A stretch of 64,000 nucleotides of DNA from Methanotrichaceae archaeon (GTDB lineage: Archaea; Halobacteriota; Methanosarcinia; Methanotrichales; Methanotrichaceae): contig CAWDLW010000011.1 in the NCBI GenBank assembly GCA_963803145.1, positions 1 through 64,000 of the forward strand, read 5' to 3'. The translations under genes were made by a program, and so were the position numbers. Shown here one piece after another: positions 16,509 to 25,399 of the stretch. The stretch's first letter is position 1. Each line of letters opens with the position of its first letter. The notes beneath the pieces are model-generated. The model was not told the origin of the DNA and did no database searches. It saw only the letters and a program-made list of their open reading frames with translations.

Positions 16509-16564
16509 AGGGAGATTTTCGATCCTGGGGTATTATAGAAAATAATTTTCTTGGGTTTATGAAA
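16509..16564 (+). repeat. Imperfect ~56-bp direct repeat, copy 1 (copy 2 at 18699-18755)
   Basis: AGGGAGA...GGGGTATTATAGAAAATAATTTTCTTGGGTTTATGAAA, with core palindrome GAAAAT-A-ATTTTC. Confidence 0.85.
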
Positions 16565-18698: not shown

Positions 18699-18755
18699 AG
18701 GGAGACCGGCGATTCTAGGGGCATTATCGAAAATAATTTTCTTGGATTTATGAAA
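18699..18755 (+). repeat. Imperfect ~56-bp direct repeat, copy 2
   Basis: AGGGAGA...GGGGCATTATCGAAAATAATTTTCTTGGATTTATGAAA; ends 3 bp before the IS1 left end. Confidence 0.85.
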
Positions 18756-18758
18756 TCG

Positions 18759-19930
18759 GGTAGTCTACCTTAGATAAGTTGTTATATTATCAACTGCAAT
18801 CATATAATTGGAGGAATACAATGATGAATGAACAATTGGTTCCTCCAAGCACGTTTTGCTGGAACCAAGAGTGTATCGACTATTGCAAAGTAAAAAATGA
18901 AAACATCATAAAATTTGGCCGAACCGCCAAAGGAACACAACGCTATCGATGTAAGACCTGTGGGAAGACATTCGTTGAAAACATAGGTACAGTATTCTAT
19001 GGTCGCCATCATAGCCAGGATACAATTCTAAAATGCTTAGCCTTGCTGGCCGAACGCAATAGTCTGGCATCCATCCATCGGGTTATGGGGATTAAAGAAG
19101 AAACAGTTATGGATTGGCTTCACGAAGCAGCTAGCCACGTTGAAGAGCTAGAGGCTCTAATGCTTGCAAACTATAAACTGACTCGTGTTCAACTGGATGC
19201 TATGTGGTCATACGTAGGAAATAAAGGCGAAAAGGGGGCTATCCAGAAGAGAACGATCGTGGTAGCTTCTGGCGCGGTACAACGATAGATATGGATACTC
19301 GCCTTAGAGTTGGGCGGTCAATCAGGAAGAGTGAAAGCGAAGTCTCTATGGAATTGATGGCCCAGTTGAAGGCTCGTGGTAATCCGGATAAACCTCCTGC
19401 TATCGCTACTGATGGCTATGATAGTTATCCGGAGGATATGCTTGAGACTTGGGGGAAAGTACCTGAATACTCTGGTAGAGGAAGACCGCCTACTCGAAAG
19501 AAGTCTGAGCCTGATTGGAAATGCATTCAGATAATCAAAACACGATCTGGAGGGCATCTTGTTAGTATCCACTACAAAGTTGTCTTTGGTGATACGAAAG
19601 GGGTCTGTGATCTAATGGGCACCCATACTGCCTATATCGAGAGGACTCATCTAACATCCAGACAGATGAATGGGCGATTTGTTAGAAAGACCATTTCTTT
19701 CTCTAAAGAGATCGAGATGCATAGGGTTTCTTGTGCCTGGGAAGATTGGGTTTATAATTTGGCCAGGCCTAACAAGTCGTTACGAATCGATTCAGCAGAA
19801 TCAAAGCGACGCTGGACGCAAAGATCTCCAGCTATGGCTGCAGGTTTGACTGATCATATTTGGACTATAAAAGAAATCCTTATGAATGTCGTGGTTCCAG
19901 ACGGGAGCAACATGAAATAGGTAGACTACC
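18759..19930 (+). mobile_element. IS1-family insertion sequence
   Basis: 12-bp perfect terminal inverted repeats GGTAGTCTACCT / AGGTAGACTACC; no matching target duplication on the flanks. Confidence 0.9.
18821..19920 (+). CDS. IS1-family transposase in two ORFs (to 19288; 19291-19920), joined by a probable -1 frameshift
   Basis: Zn ribbon (CWNQEC...QRYRCKTCGKTF) plus HTH; DDE part QLDAMWSYVG / IATDG / YIER; slippery A AAG GGG at 19230-19236. Confidence 0.88.
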
Positions 19931-20761
19931 GGTGATCGTTCTGGAACAAAATGGATGGGCGATAATGATATTCGTTTCCTTGTAGGATTAGGTTTACGAT
20001 TACTAATAGAAATTTGTTGGCAGAAAAAAGTGCTTCTAATTGGAATAGCAAAGGATAGTAATTCAAGATATTTCTTTAAAAATTTTCTATCCGTAATGCA
20101 TGCGAGCCAAATTATAAACGTGCCAAGTGCTCCTATAATTACAGGTACCGATCGTAGCATCTTGGAGATGCTGCCGAGAATTGATAGTAATCTCTCCGCA
20201 CCATGGAGTACGATTGAATTTGATGCTATATTCATGACACTTCGAGCTCTATTGGATGCGGATACAAGGCGCCCAAGAATTCAGGGTGTTCGAGGAGATG
20301 TTTTAGCTCCAAGCGATGGCCTCATTATGAGAAGTCTTGTTCAATTATTTTTATTGCATAGACCAAATAAAGATACGCCATTGATGGGGCATGTACTTTT
20401 TATGGACAGACTTGCATATCCCTACTTCGATTCTCCACATAGATATCGAGATTATATTGAAACTTGGAGAACCACTGATGAAGATATCATTAAGGGCGGA
20501 TCTAAAATCAAGCCAATGATATTTTTAAGCAACCAAGAATTAAATATAGCTCAAGAAATTTCTGCAATTTTAACTGAATTCTTAACGAAGAATTTTTTCC
20601 CAGAAGCTATTGGTCAACCTGATCCGCTACATCGAGCAGATCAAGGTGCCAAAGCATTAGGAAAGCAGATTCGCAGCCTTATTCTTGCAAGTACAATTTA
20701 TTTTAATAAAAATCCACTGGCTTTAAGTTTTCGCGATATGAGAGATAGGAGGGCACGATGA
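19931..20761 (+). pseudogene. NurA-like nuclease, 5'-truncated by IS1
   Basis: Frame is open right up to the IS end; LIGIAKDS and GQPDPLHRADQGAK match NurA motifs; the N-terminal catalytic DGS region is missing. Confidence 0.75.
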
Positions 20762-22773
20762 CTTCGCAATGGAGAGACGAAGCATGGAGCCGAGGAATAT
20801 TACTCGGATTGAAAGTTGACCCAAACACCGGATATAGGGCGATAGTATGGTTCGAATATACGCGTTATCTTTTTAATGAAATTCGGGAAGGAAGTCTAAT
20901 AGCGGTTCGTAATTTCTGTGATCAACGGCGAAATCCTGACGGGAGTCCGTGTGGAGGACGGAATGCCAGGGATGTGGGCTACGAAGGATATAGTATTCTC
21001 CAAATAGATCAGATTTATCCATGGCACTATGCCATGCAAGGTGATGGCGAACAAGGATATCCTGGATTTACTGTTCCTGCCACAGAAAGTGCAAGAACAG
21101 ATTGGATAGAAATGGATACAGAAAACCGTGATGATGTATCAAGGATTAAATGTGAAGCGATACCGCTAAGAATGGCGTTTGAAAATAATCCAAGTATCGT
21201 TGGCGTTCCAGAGGTTTTTTTCGATTATTCTATGCCCATGCCTGGCTTCGAGGCGAGACTCCTCACATCAGATATGACAAAAGAAATTCTAAATAAAGAT
21301 ATTGATAGGCTAGAAGCTCTAGAGCTTGGAAAACATATCGTTCAATATGATGTACCTATATTTATCCATCGAGGCGATCTATTAAGATTGCATTTCGGAA
21401 TATTTGGCTACACTGGCGCGGGAAAAAGCAATCTAGTAAGCAACTTAGTTCACAATCTTTTAGCTATTGTCCCAAAACCAAGTGATCAAGGTGCAAAAGT
21501 ATTTAGAATTGTTTTAATTGATCTAATGGATGAATATACAGGCCTTTTAATTGATAATCTATTAGGGCATAGGGATAGCCGCCTCATTGTCTGTGGCCGT
21601 AACGAATTGCCGAGAGCGGTACAAGAGGCATGTATCAGAGCAGCCTTCGATATGGGTGATAGAGCCCAAGTGGAACAACAAGCTAGAGATGCGGCAAATG
21701 ATTGGAGCCGGAGATTAATTCTGCCCGACGAATTGAAGTCGCTAAGCGAACGATATGCTGAAGCCCTAACAAATCTTATTCTTGAACGACGAGTTTTGTT
21801 TTACGAATCAGATCAAGAACAAGGACTCGCATTTAGCATAGATCCTAATATCTTGAATGCGCTTATTGGTCAACAGGCTTACGGATCTGGTGCTCCAGGG
21901 ACGGCTACACGAAATCAAAGAGTACCGGCATTAATCAATGAATTGACTCAACCGATTCGAAATGCGAGGAGGGTTCAAGGATATGAAAGAGATCAGGTGC
22001 TCGAATTTGTAATAAGGCGCTTAGAGACCGAAAAACAATTCATGCCCGCTAAAAATGCCAGAGATGCAATCGATAATTTTATACATACAGTTGAAGCTCA
22101 TATGCATACTAGAGGCGCACTCCCTCAGAATATCGCTATAACTCCTTCTGATTTATCTGCTCAACTAAATGTCCGTCCTAATAATCAAGACCCCTTGATT
22201 CATCCATCCCTGACTATTGTTATTGGCGAAGATGAAAGCCACATAGCTAATTTTATTAGCCAGCTTGTTGATGATTGTTTTGAACAGAGAAGAGACGAAA
22301 GCATCCTCTACCCTACAATTAGTTTCATTTTCGATGAAGCGGATGTCTTTATTGGCCAAGGAAATCCCATTCTAGAAGATCAAACGACAATGCTAGCTAG
22401 ACGAGGACGCAAGTTTGGCTTAGGGATTGGTATAGCAACCCAACGGATTGCTTATTTAAATACATCGATCATGGCTCAACCCCACACGTATTTTATAAGC
22501 AAACTCCCAAGAAAATCAGATAGAAGCATAATTGCCGAAGCATTTGCGATTTCAGAAGAGACCCTCAAGCAGACTTTCAGTTTTACAAAAGGTCAGTGGT
22601 TGGTCACAAGTCATGATGCAACAGGCTTGAAAAGTATACCGTTCCCTGTACAAGCGCCAAATGCTAATGAAAGGGTTAGGGTTTGGCTTGATCCTACTGT
22701 ATCTCAGGAGATATTCGATAGATTAGAACCAAATGGACGCCAACAACTGCCATGGTTAAATTATTTGGGATAG
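20758..22773 (+). CDS. HerA/FtsK-family ATPase (DUF87 type), intact
   Basis: HFGIFGYTGAGKS Walker A, FIFDEAD Walker B, RRGRKFGLGIGIATQR; N-terminal barrel-like region; ATGA overlap with the nurA-like stop. Confidence 0.92.
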   Translation: MTSQWRDEAWSRGILLGLKVDPNTGYRAIVWFEYTRYLFNEIREGSLIAVRNFCDQRRNPDGSPCGGRNARDVGYEGYSILQIDQIYPWHYAMQGDGEQGYPGFTVPATESARTDWIEMDTENRDDVSRIKCEAIPLRMAFENNPSIVGVPEVFFDYSMPMPGFEARLLTSDMTKEILNKDIDRLEALELGKHIVQYDVPIFIHRGDLLRLHFGIFGYTGAGKSNLVSNLVHNLLAIVPKPSDQGAKVFRIVLIDLMDEYTGLLIDNLLGHRDSRLIVCGRNELPRAVQEACIRAAFDMGDRAQVEQQARDAANDWSRRLILPDELKSLSERYAEALTNLILERRVLFYESDQEQGLAFSIDPNILNALIGQQAYGSGAPGTATRNQRVPALINELTQPIRNARRVQGYERDQVLEFVIRRLETEKQFMPAKNARDAIDNFIHTVEAHMHTRGALPQNIAITPSDLSAQLNVRPNNQDPLIHPSLTIVIGEDESHIANFISQLVDDCFEQRRDESILYPTISFIFDEADVFIGQGNPILEDQTTMLARRGRKFGLGIGIATQRIAYLNTSIMAQPHTYFISKLPRKSDRSIIAEAFAISEETLKQTFSFTKGQWLVTSHDATGLKSIPFPVQAPNANERVRVWLDPTVSQEIFDRLEPNGRQQLPWLNYLG

Positions 22774-23000
22774 ATCAGAATGATTCCATTTTTAGTTGTA
22801 GATAGACCCGCATCATTACGAATCATTAAGGGATCAAATCCAAATGGCCCGATCGGCCTAATGAGTCATGCAAATGCGAGCCCTCTATTTATAAAACTTT
22901 TCAAGAGCTATCCCTGTGGGGAAGGATTTTGCCATGCCCTTGATAAAAACGGGGAAAAAAATTGTCCATATTCAAGTGAATTTATTAGATGTAGACAAGC

Positions 23001-24138
23001 GAGGATTCCTATTTACTTGTATCCTAAGGGCGGTTTTTTTAAATCGACTCTAGATTTGCCTTACGATGTTCGCTATTCTTGGTCTAACCTGTTTTTTTTC
23101 AGTTAATTCTCGATAGCATCCGCTATCCCTAAATGACATTTGCCTTTTTAAGAGTACAAAGCTGATACAAGTTAAAAGCGAAAGCGGTAACTATCATTTT
23201 CACATGCACTCTTCTGACTGATGTAACAAGCACTCTTCCAGCCTCGAAAACCCTCTTGATTACAGCATGGGGCCTTTCGCCAGGCGATCTGAGGATACTG
23301 ATCAACTGATTGCGTTCTTTATCAAGATCAGAAAGAGGTTTATCAGTAGTCCTGCGCTTCATTGTAAAATCAATACCTTTGGCCTTCACACCGAAATATC
23401 CTCTATCTCTGAAAACTGGCACGCCAGGGATAGAGAGATCAACCTGACTGTCATGCAGTGATGCAGTCGAGGTCTCTATATCACGTATTAGGCTGTAATC
23501 GATATCAGTTATTTGATGTAACTTATATCCGAAGTGAGTTTCATTGCCTTTCTTAGCCCATGTGCCATCCTTGCTGCGACGTGTCTTAGCCTCATCGCCA
23601 CGTGGTTTCTTTGACTCCGATGATCCTGGATCTGCTTCTATAAAGGTAGCATCCTGAACAATTCCGCGTCTGATCTTCAATCCTTTTGCATCCAACTGTC
23701 TTTGAAGTTCAGCCCAAACAAGCCTATCTGTTCCTGTCTCCGCCATTCGTTCTTTGAATGACCATATAGTTCTGGAATCAGGGAACTGATCAGGAAAACC
23801 AAGAAATGCCATAAATGATATGCGATCAGCCATTTGCCGTTCAACAGCCAGATCGCTCAGGCCATACCACTGCTGGAGAATCAGGATCCTGAACATTAGA
23901 ATAACATCACAGTTGGGCCTTCCGCCCTTCTCGGTCTTATTAGTATACATCCCTTCCAGAAGAGGACGAAAGGGAACCCAATTGATCAATCCAGATACTT
24001 GAGCTAATTTAGACTCCTCTTGCTTTGCATTTAGACCTTTCAATACCCAAGTAGTAAAAGAATCCATAACAATAAATACTATTTGCTGTATTTAACACTT
24101 TCGATGCTAAAGCAGGGGGTAGGTTTATAGGAATCCTC
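23001..24138 (-). mobile_element. IS5-family insertion sequence
   Basis: Terminal inverted repeats GAGGATTCCTAT / ATAGGAATCCTC; 4-bp target duplication AAGC at 22997-23000 and 24139-24142. Confidence 0.95.
23129..24067 (-). CDS. IS5-family transposase
   Basis: LQQWYGLSD, QDATFIEA, FGYKLH, DRGYFG and RSPGERPHAVIK motifs. Confidence 0.95.
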   Translation of the reverse strand: MDSFTTWVLKGLNAKQEESKLAQVSGLINWVPFRPLLEGMYTNKTEKGGRPNCDVILMFRILILQQWYGLSDLAVERQMADRISFMAFLGFPDQFPDSRTIWSFKERMAETGTDRLVWAELQRQLDAKGLKIRRGIVQDATFIEADPGSSESKKPRGDEAKTRRSKDGTWAKKGNETHFGYKLHQITDIDYSLIRDIETSTASLHDSQVDLSIPGVPVFRDRGYFGVKAKGIDFTMKRRTTDKPLSDLDKERNQLISILRSPGERPHAVIKRVFEAGRVLVTSVRRVHVKMIVTAFAFNLYQLCTLKKANVI

Positions 24139-25399
24139 AAGCAGAGCATATAATAAAAAACACCATAAAAATATGCGATTGTGGTATGTTCACAAAGGAA
24201 GGCGCTAGGTTTTCCTATGAAGATCTATTTAGCATATACGAAAAAATGGGCGCAGATTATGGTATCATGATAGATGTCTTTAAAGATAGAGAAGCAACTT
24301 TGAAAAGTGCGAGAAATGCAATTGATATTTATAACAAGCATAATTATAAATTTAAATTGGTTTTAGTTGCCCAGGGGACTAGTGTAGAAGAATATGTTAA
24401 ATCGTATGAGGATCTATTAAACCTAGGAAGCGATTTTATTGCCGTAGGTGGTCTTCTTAAGAGACGCAAGAATACTGCGAGATATGTATATGTAGAAAGC
24501 TTGGGATTTATGAGCGATGTTCTTAAGTCGTTACGCAATGAATTTGATCCCAGTTGGCTATTTGCGTTAGGATGCTATCACCCTAAAAGGCATAAGATGT
24601 TCGAAGAATATGGGGTATGGGGTAGCGATTATAAAGGATGGATTTTTCAATATAAAAAGCGTGAGCGCTTGATACAAATTCATTGGGAAAATATAATTAA
24701 ACAGCTTAACGAAGTAGTTGGGGAAAATAGTGAGGCTACATTATCTTCATTTGCAGTTGAGATAAAAAAAAGGCGTGCAAAATTAATTAAGTACGAAAAG
24801 AAAGATTATAATAAATCGCGAAGGAATTTACCTGTTAAAGACAGAAATCCATTGTTCATAAAATTAGATTCTAAATTAATCCATGTGTTAAGTGATATTC
24901 AATCAGTATTATATTTGGATGGGTCTAGTTCTGTCATTGAAAATGAATTGAATTCTATAATATTACTAGCATCAACATCCGAACAACAAATTAGGTTTAA
25001 TCAATTGAGAAATTTAATCCGAAATCTCTCTTCAGTTAGGTCTAACATATAATCCAAAGCAAAGACCCTTATAAGAACTAGGATTTATTAAACAGGTACG
25101 AAGAACATCCTAATTTTAAAAAAATAATATTTTATCCCATATTTCGCAGTATTGATTTTCAAAATCTATAATTTTCATGAAACTTAGGTCAAATTAATAT
25201 TTACAATTTGCTGGTCAAATCGCTATTTCACACAAAAAAGAGGTGCCAAGATAACTGGCTCAAATAGTTTCTATTTTTCAAGTTGTTTACTTAAATTCGT
25301 TATTAGGATTCAATGTGCAAATTTAAATTAGCTTGAAAATTATTTTTGCTTGAAATGAAAGTGCGGAATGTGGGTTTTATCGATTTAAGAGGGCACAAA

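Follow-up and report, generated by a model that had tools for sequence, protein, structure and literature searches.

A candidate Dpd-related cassette of DUF6884, NurA, HerA and a DpdA-like transglycosylase, and its inactivated copy in a Methanotrichaceae genome

Several described systems share parts with the locus analyzed here. The Dpd system (dpdA-K), known from Salmonella enterica serovar Montevideo and other bacteria (PMC10164549), joins a modification module, including the transglycosylase DpdA, to a restriction module. HerA and NurA are known as an end-resection complex with solved structures (9x1m, 2ygk, 3taz), and HerA-type motors work with an effector in the Sir2-HerA and DUF4297-HerA systems. 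In this study, we examined a stretch of 64,000 nucleotides from a Methanotrichaceae archaeon (GenBank assembly GCA_963803145.1, contig CAWDLW010000011.1, positions 1 to 64,000 of the forward strand; the whole stretch is called the window below), which carries herA next to the remains of a nurA-like gene and of a gene resembling those for tRNA-guanine transglycosylases (TGTs). A first-pass annotation had read these genes as a three-gene operon in a mobile island and as a candidate system of defence or DNA base modification; its observation is partly confirmed and its interpretation partly supported by our results. We propose, with moderate confidence, that the intact cassette, found in other genomes, is a restriction-modification-type defence related to Dpd, in which self DNA would be marked with a 7-deazaguanine and HerA-NurA would destroy unmarked DNA. 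The copy in the window is best explained as a recently inactivated relic of this horizontally spread cassette.

The three genes recur together in other organisms. In a scan of one genome per species, which gave 20 loci, genes for a NurA-like protein, HerA and the TGT-like protein lie together on one strand at 12 loci from archaea and bacteria (Bathyarchaeia, Methanobacteriota, Thermococcaceae, Thermoplasmatota, cyanobacteria, Aquificales, Pirellulaceae, Chloroflexota and Sedimenticola). A metagenome scan, from which 80 loci were kept, adds 45 loci with all three genes, eight with HerA and TGT where the contig end cuts the locus, two with near-identical open reading frames (ORFs) encoding a HerA-TGT fusion, one with a HerA fragment plus TGT, one with a NurA fragment plus TGT, 13 with TGT alone despite at least 4 kb of visible upstream sequence, and 10 that are uninformative. 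These counts include near-duplicates, with at least nine loci repeating others. The three genes thus do co-occur elsewhere, yet the three-gene architecture put forward at first is incomplete: clustering of the neighbours revealed a fourth gene for a DUF6884 protein of about 155 amino acids (aa), so that the true unit is DUF6884, NurA, HerA and a DpdA-like transglycosylase.

The fourth protein is assigned through Pfam (PF21818, E down to 1.1e-23 for L004:4903-5370) and is present at 50 of the 57 three-gene loci. Of these, 32 have it as a separate gene and 18 as a fusion with the TGT-like protein; five of the seven loci lacking it are cut by contig ends. The fusion is also seen in reverse, with DUF6884 at the N-terminus of a TGT-like protein of about 610 aa (L041:4537-6378, L049:5065-6894 and L051:3040-4869). 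Since both N-terminal and C-terminal fusions occur, the two domains are joined in both orders. Residues C10, K14, S54 and G58 are invariant in 14 sequences, and the DUF6884 proteins of the relatives carry both motifs given for the family, CxxxK and LSAxxG (PMC11701544). They also match PF03883 weakly; DUF6884 is related to YaaA (PMC11701544), and DpdC is a DUF328/PF03883 protein, i.e., a member of the YaaA family (PMC12839542). The closest intact locus, L029, has DUF6884 directly upstream of nurA and shares 68, 58.5 and 58% identity with the window across the three proteins. No DUF6884 protein was found in the source genome (0 matches at E <= 0.1; completeness 99.3%).

The first gene of the window had been described as encoding a NurA-like nuclease. 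Its place in the NurA family holds by fold, while the window retains only the C-terminal 268 residues without the catalytic N-terminal part. Full-length homologues span 600-640 aa, and a tblastn search with six of them matched the window only at 19931-20731, corresponding to their residues from about 346 to 628; homology begins at 19931-19937, directly after the end of an IS1-like insertion sequence (IS). An intact short NurA is ruled out by the length of the relatives and by this starting point. Displacement of the N-terminal part by the IS1-like element is likewise ruled out, because that part was found nowhere in the window or the genome, in which the remnant is the single match. The remnant is 68% identical to the C-terminus of L029:4140-6041, its closest full-length relative.

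Assignment to NurA comes from structure prediction. The remnant has no Pfam match, and the Pfam NurA model (PF09376) gave nine weak matches among 10 full-length relatives, only L005 (26.9 bits) exceeding the 21-bit cut-off. Searching PDB sequences with a family profile gave no match, and fold comparison alone revealed related structures. For this, L029:4140-6041 was modeled with AlphaFold2 from a 37-sequence alignment (predicted local distance difference test, pLDDT, 83.9; predicted TM-score, pTM, 0.88), the local remnant corresponding to the C-terminal 42% of the model. All 10 PDB matches at E <= 0.001 are NurA chains (1.7e-8 to 4.2e-6), and the next match follows at E 0.016, so the family is predicted to have the RNase H-like NurA fold. 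Its alignment contains IDG[TS]-type, GIVKDSxS and GxPDPLHxAD blocks. The N-terminal block reads IDGT or IDES, its Asp (D83 of L029) being invariant, and corresponds to (I/V)DG(S/T), which we take to be the motif of the catalytic Asp of NurA; the other two are presumably NurA motif blocks as well. Only these last two are kept in the window, where the protein starts about 290 residues past the invariant Asp; the catalytic Asp is present in the family and missing from the local copy.

The second gene does encode an intact HerA ATPase, as first described, with Walker A (GYTGAGKS at 217) and Walker B (FIFDEA at 523) present and a Pfam match above cut-off (PF01935, E 4.7e-13, 50.2 bits vs. 23.2). 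Its best PADLOC model is PDLC01055 (E 4.3e-55), it matches the solved chains 9x1l (5.9e-15), 8j4u and 4d2i, and it shares 58-62% identity along the whole protein with HerA of the intact cassettes L029, L056 and L058. The housekeeping copy is another gene: contig C17 of the same genome carries a herA-nurA pair of its own, with the two genes adjacent. The noted lack of adjoining mre11 and rad50 genes holds, none being seen among the scanned ORFs of the window. A search of the genome for the Rad50 zinc hook gave no match and is uninformative on whether the pair on C17 adjoins mre11-rad50.

A link between HerA and the TGT-like protein is also seen within single ORFs, L087:3-2501 (832 aa) and L088:121-2673 (850 aa), with the HerA domain at residues of about 1-551 and the TGT-like barrel at about 593-849. 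Both contigs are near-identical and represent one natural fusion seen twice. A complex prediction for HerA (L029 residues 75-647, 38-row alignment) with the TGT-like protein scored 0.00 and is no evidence either way.

In the third gene, the predicted 376-aa protein is indeed restored when the IS5-family element is removed. Joining 22780-23000 and 24143-25052 in silico gives 1131 nt with 376 codons and a single terminal stop, and the product is 55% identical to an intact homologue of 374 aa in an alignment of 370 columns that contains one gap. A profile of the TGT-like proteins, which form a small family of 292 clusters (E <= 0.001) in a set of 1.84 billion representatives, matches the window at 22777-22962 (E 4.3e-19) and 24132-25031 (E 1.2e-119). 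The 3' part contains the motifs K-I-C-D-C-G-M-F, VAQG, AVGGL and WGSDYKGW and a C-terminal helical domain. Relationship to DpdA is suggested by PADLOC, whose DpdA model PDLC02807 matches the C-terminal fragment of the window (E 1e-7) and whose DpdA models match 11 of 18 relatives at E <= 0.01 (best 1.7e-10). It is also indicated by the predicted structure of P0006, a close homologue that shares 68% identity with that fragment (pLDDT 84.1, pTM 0.79), for which a Foldseek search of the PDB returned DpdA (7ui4, E 3.1e-8) on top; bacterial TGT chains rank 7 and 9, with unrelated TIM barrels in between. The TGT fold claimed for the third protein is thus supported, and we predict a TGT/DpdA-like TIM barrel that is closest to DpdA. 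From about residue 247 on, the P0006 model adds a helical domain absent from TGTs.

Conserved residues are consistent with this assignment. D86, F90, D118, Q151-G152, G176-G177 and D236 are invariant in 36 TGT-like sequences, in the same order and motif context as D95, F99, D130, H181-G182, G206-G207 and D256 of DpdA (PMC10164549); D86, D118, D236 and G176-G177 are present in the window copy. An hhalign comparison places D86, D118, VAQG and AVGGL on the corresponding TGT motifs, at non-significant probability. Within the subgroup of the window (the window copy and six of the 10 full-length relatives aligned), the protein has a Cys/His-rich insert at residues of about 45-72 (window 22915-23000), which is modeled at pLDDT < 50 and at whose very end the IS5-family element sits. 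This insert may form a zinc knuckle in place of the TGT zinc site that has been lost. Apart from the cassette, the source genome has three PF01702 genes: one at C8:351347-352309 (E 3.1e-92) adjoins a partial TGT-like gene at C8:353085-353519, and the third, at C15:239650-240795 (L112:1390-2658), encodes 422 aa and matches the TGT model more strongly (E 7.7e-126), as an additional, clearly TGT-like paralogue.

The ORFs at 19955-20761, 20758-22773 and 22780-23106, the last resuming at 24186-25052, bear out three co-oriented genes, and both the ATGA overlap at 20758-20761 and the 6-nt gap at 22774-22779 are present as initially reported. Among the three genes, however, only herA is intact (Table 1). 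The IS1-like element gives weak Pfam matches to Zn_ribbon_InsA and DDE_Tnp_IS1, has 11-nt inverted ends at 18759-18769 and 19920-19930, and belongs to six genome copies, the local one included, that are at least 99% identical and equal in extent within 1-2 bases except for one longer copy. The second element has all the marks of the IS5 family: a DDE transposase (PF05598 and PF01609), inverted ends identical at 12 of 12 positions (23001-23012 and 24127-24138), a short target duplication (AAGC at 22997-23000 and 24139-24142) and multiple copies. Thirteen copies, including the local one, are 98-100% identical, and most have the same extent within a few bases.

Table 1. Positions of the cassette genes and of the two insertion sequences in the window
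Feature	Position	Strand	Description
IS1-like insertion sequence	18758-19930	+	InsA-like ORF 18779-19288, InsB-like ORF 19291-19920; abuts and truncates the NurA-like gene
NurA-like 3' remnant	19931-20761	+	ORF 19955-20761, 268 aa; equals residues about 373-638 of full-length relatives
HerA-family ATPase, intact	20758-22773	+	671 aa; Pfam, PADLOC, structures, Walker motifs
DpdA/TGT-like gene, 5' part	22780-23000	+	Codons 1-73 plus 2 nt; aligns with N-termini of full-length homologues
IS5-family insertion sequence	23001-24138	-	Inside the TGT-like gene; transposase 23129-24067 on the minus strand
DpdA/TGT-like gene, 3' part	24143-25052	+	Continues the reading frame of the 5' part once the IS is removed

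With nurA reduced to a 3' remnant, the TGT-like gene split and DUF6884 absent, the local system cannot be functional and is dead in the source genome. Because L029 has DUF6884 directly upstream of nurA and the source genome has none, the simplest history is that DUF6884 and the 5' part of nurA were lost together, in association with the IS1-like element. This element would here have replaced DUF6884 and the first ~370 codons of nurA, and the IS5-family element splits the transglycosylase gene; only herA is whole. Through two elements whose other genome copies are 98-100% identical, the local copy shows how quickly the cassette can be lost, and it offers a natural knock-out for comparison.

Elsewhere, the TGT-like protein and DUF6884 form a pair that also stands beside other partners. 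At L010 the pair lies beside homologues of DrmA (1.3e-77), DrmB (1.6e-24) and DrmC (1e-25); in this Heimdallarchaeota locus (L010:2104-9470) the three drm genes are followed by a TGT-DUF6884 fusion. By clustering, DrmABC-like neighbours also occur at L009, L020, L060 and L070. The two ORFs flanking this cluster at L010, the only locus checked for a methylase, gave no PADLOC match, and DrmABC with TGT-DUF6884 may be a DISARM-like system in which a deazaguanine mark replaces the methylase. At L040 the pair lies beside a DpdJ-like helicase (3.5e-45), an arrangement limited to loci without HerA-NurA. A SIR2-ORC/Cdc6-like protein (14 loci) and a CARF6-like protein (12 loci) also accompany the pair, as illustrated by the 850-aa SIR2-ORC/Cdc6-like ATPase at L008:4443-7004 and the 348-aa CARF6-like protein at L007:2259-3305; at four cassette loci (L032, L036, L081 and L095) both genes lie between herA and the TGT-like gene. 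SIR2-ORC, CARF6-like protein and TGT-DUF6884 look like another putative cassette on the same marking module.

Genes for the supply of 7-deazaguanines are linked to the same loci. Directly upstream of the TGT-like gene of the Nitrosopumilus locus L020 are queC (3.1e-67) and queD (8.4e-23), and a DrmA-like helicase gene lies downstream (L020:6904-9397). A Q_salvage gene (1.9e-15) is located directly upstream of nurA at L001, and at L015 about 0.7 kb separates the DUF6884 gene from an upstream PF02592 gene (3.2e-52). PF02592, a preQ1/preQ0 transporter family (PMC11130926), is represented by a cluster present at five cassette loci. QueC is also encoded in the source genome.

Gene identities, folds, synteny, fusions, linked genes and breaks are direct results of this analysis, on which we model the function of the intact cassette as follows. 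The transglycosylase would exchange guanines of host DNA for a 7-deazaguanine base (preQ0 or a derivative), supplied by the queuosine or archaeosine precursor pathway of the cell or by linked genes for biosynthesis, salvage and transport. DUF6884, with its invariant Cys-x3-Lys and its likeness to YaaA and DpdC, would finish or alter the mark. A HerA hexamer would thread DNA into the NurA nuclease, and DNA without the mark would be destroyed. We read the TGT-like enzyme as a DNA guanine transglycosylase because an exchangeable marking pair with alternative killing modules is the pattern of restriction-modification; we infer that the substrate is DNA, that the mark is a 7-deazaguanine and that HerA-NurA discriminates by it. 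The first-pass annotation had left two roles for the enzyme, marking of self DNA or sensing or excision of modified guanines in invader DNA. Marking is favoured by the links to queC, queD, queuosine salvage and the preQ0 transporter, and sensing or excision is less likely.

HerA might, more tentatively, have a second role as the ATPase that gives the transglycosylase access to guanines in duplex DNA, replacing DpdB, so that one translocase would serve a writer (TGT-DUF6884) and an eraser (NurA). Such HerA-powered base exchange stays conceivable because a natural HerA-TGT fusion exists and no DpdB-like gene was seen. If so, and we would put this forward with equal reserve, a single hexameric pump would choose between marking and destroying the DNA it threads, as a restriction-modification machine.

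Several observations weigh against our preferred reading of a marking transglycosylase coupled to HerA-NurA restriction. The choice of DNA rather than tRNA as the substrate comes from genomic context, and no mark-reading domain was identified in the predicted system. DpdB is required for DpdA activity in Salmonella (PMC10164549), and a ParB-like DpdB is not among the conserved neighbours or the 25 most frequent Pfam families, although no DpdB model was searched directly. The TGT-like gene occurs without HerA-NurA at seven of the 20 genome loci and 13 of the 80 metagenome loci, with at least 4 kb of upstream sequence. Its protein stays below the threshold of Pfam TGT (PF01702; best 17 bits, E 0.0033, vs. 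a cut-off of 26.3), with weak matches in four of eight relatives, and the family profile found neither TGT nor DpdA among PDB sequences. DpdA is matched at a TM-score of only 0.40/0.37, with generic TIM barrels such as PEP mutase and aldolases close behind in E-value. The hhalign comparisons with the TGTs of the source genome itself are non-significant (1.8 and 0.7%) and served for motif register only, and D236, outside every TGT alignment, is proposed as nucleophile by order and spacing. TGTs and DpdA conserve a zinc site formed by a Cys/His cluster (PMC10164549); no Cys column is invariant in either 18 or 36 TGT-like sequences, and the structural zinc site is therefore not conserved. Enrichment in defence islands, a check named in the first-pass annotation, did not emerge either: a tally of 138 other neighbouring ORFs, with at most four matches per Pfam family and without a control set, gave no clear defence-island signal.

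The rival that survives best, though we consider it unlikely, makes the TGT-like protein an effector. It would excise guanines or phage 7-deazaguanines in invader DNA, the resulting abasic sites or covalent adducts would be recognized by DUF6884, and HerA-NurA would then degrade the DNA. Indeed, the TGT mechanism begins with base excision and a covalent enzyme-nucleic acid intermediate (PMC10164549), the DUF6884 member YfjM is reported among the binders of abasic and RNA-base lesions (PMC11701544), 7-deazaguanines are used by phages against restriction (PMC6884629), and, judging from the HerA-TGT fusion ORFs, the enzyme may travel with the motor. However, the linked QueC, QueD, Q_salvage and preQ0-transporter families indicate that free deazaguanine base is supplied, a requirement of insertion but not of excision. 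In addition, TGT-DUF6884 is found beside DrmABC where DISARM normally has its methylase, which had no PADLOC counterpart in the flanking ORFs of L010.

An improbable rival is a DNA-repair or maintenance cassette of a mobile element without any role in immunity, in which HerA-NurA would resect ends as it does in archaeal recombination, and the TGT-like protein and DUF6884 would replace or process damaged guanines. HerA-NurA is described as a resection machine of archaea, a repair role has been proposed for DUF6884 and YaaA (PMC11701544), and the neighbourhoods are not obviously defence islands. Yet the distribution is patchy (two of 40 related genomes) and the cassette is spread over unrelated phyla, TGT-DUF6884 is exchangeable among DISARM-like, DpdJ-like and SIR2 partners, the same genome has a separate housekeeping herA-nurA pair, and the cassette was lost locally by IS insertions. 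It is very improbable that the protein is a divergent tRNA-guanine transglycosylase or queuosine-salvage enzyme with no joint function with HerA-NurA, since the weak Pfam TGT matches and the linkage to queuosine precursor genes that speak for it are set against the neighbouring herA and nurA at 57 of 100 loci, where the genes overlap or follow each other closely, one HerA-TGT fusion protein in two near-identical copies, a DNA enzyme (DpdA) as the best structural match, three PF01702 genes already in the genome and the small size of the family (292 clusters).

The AT-richness reported earlier is confirmed, with a GC content of 0.33-0.43 at 20-25 kb vs. 0.47-0.55 in kb 1-14 (one window of 0.446 there), and ordinary metabolic genes flank the locus outside about 15-28 kb. 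The TGT-like gene is present in two of 40 related genomes and in none of the 24 from the same family. Neither an integrase nor a tRNA was found to mark an island border, which leaves low GC, IS elements and absence from relatives as the grounds for the term mobile island. As for a phage origin, a viral contig scan gave only four weak partial matches among 128 candidate stretches. Just left of the IS1-like element lies a dispersed short repeat of about 56 bp (window 18700-18757), which recurs at about nine further genomic positions (80-90% identity), window 16520-16564 among them. The assembly has an estimated contamination of 6.8% and contains three full-length archaeal RNase P RNA genes (C9:3971-4272, C38:46773-47074 and C17:254301-254602), two of which score identically; the RNase P RNA reaches 214.8 bits on the archaeal model, whose cut-off is passed by just the four archaea of the control genomes, and the genome is thus archaeal. 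Three such genes and this level of contamination may mean that the assembly holds duplicated contigs or more than one strain.

Compared with known systems, the cassette resembles Dpd in its TGT-fold transglycosylase related to DpdA, in a partner of the YaaA superfamily (DpdC there, DUF6884 here), in its links to preQ0 genes and in the joining of a modification module to a restriction module. The Dpd gene set of DpdA, DpdB, DpdC and DpdD-K is, however, not what surrounds the transglycosylase, whose conserved neighbours are DUF6884, NurA and HerA: DpdD-K are missing, a ParB-like ATPase corresponding to DpdB was not seen, and HerA-NurA takes the place of the restriction genes. The transglycosylases form a separate small family that is sub-threshold for Pfam TGT, lacks invariant Cys residues for a zinc site and has an extra C-terminal helical domain, and the partner is DUF6884, not DUF328. 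With the HerA-NurA end-resection complex, the cassette shares the NurA fold, the HerA Walker motifs and adjacent, translationally coupled genes. Its NurA is nevertheless different in having 600-640 aa, large inserts and mostly scores below the Pfam threshold (one of 10 above), and the pair is accessory, patchy and tied to TGT-DUF6884. As in Sir2-HerA and DUF4297-HerA, a HerA-type motor is combined with an effector, which in the cassette is NurA.

Other systems share single elements. The seven-component BRC system, with HerA/FtsK, GNAT and TGT (PMC12839542), likewise combines a HerA/FtsK translocase and a TGT homologue, for which marking of self DNA has been proposed, whereas the cassette is without PglZ, a BrxC-like protein, STAND NTPase, DUF4007 and GNAT; the main text of PMC12839542 does not mention NurA. 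Accessory HerA/NurA proteins of type III CRISPR-cas loci (clusters 57 and 58, PMC6546367) are related in that PDLC01055, the best PADLOC model of the window HerA, was built from that cluster. A linkage to type III CRISPR, which this label suggested, is rejected, as no cas family is present among the conserved neighbours of the cassette or the 25 most frequent Pfam families. The main text of PMC6546367 contains neither TGT nor transglycosylase. DISARM (DrmA, DrmB, DrmC and a methylase) and Dpd-like systems with YprA helicases (bioRxiv 10.1101/2025.09.15.676423) resemble the loci where TGT-DUF6884 lies beside DrmABC-like genes or the DpdJ-like helicase (L040 group). These are other cassettes that share only the marking module, and the cassette of the window has neither a YprA-type helicase nor a PLD nuclease; HerA, NurA, TGT and DUF6884 are absent from the main text of that preprint.

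In line with the earlier statement that no named system has this architecture, we found none in the literature searched, supplementary tables excluded, or in PADLOC v2.0. PADLOC has no model for the NurA-like protein and covers the others only by a generic HerA, weak DpdA matches and the candidate 'PDC-M57A' (DUF6884). Outside supplementary tables, no relevant paper of the literature searched pairs HerA and NurA with TGT, DpdA, transglycosylase or preQ0. If our model is true, the known self-marking chemistry of archaea would become wider, HerA-NurA would gain an immune role outside DNA repair, and a compact, DpdB-independent transglycosylase would become available for possible use in site-specific exchange of DNA bases. 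Archaea and many bacterial phyla would plug a portable two-enzyme marking module into HerA-NurA, DISARM-like or SIR2-based killing. We consider the cassette a widespread variant of the Dpd kind for which the literature searched holds no description, and 7-deazaguanine marking of cellular DNA would then not be confined to the large Dpd islands of bacteria.

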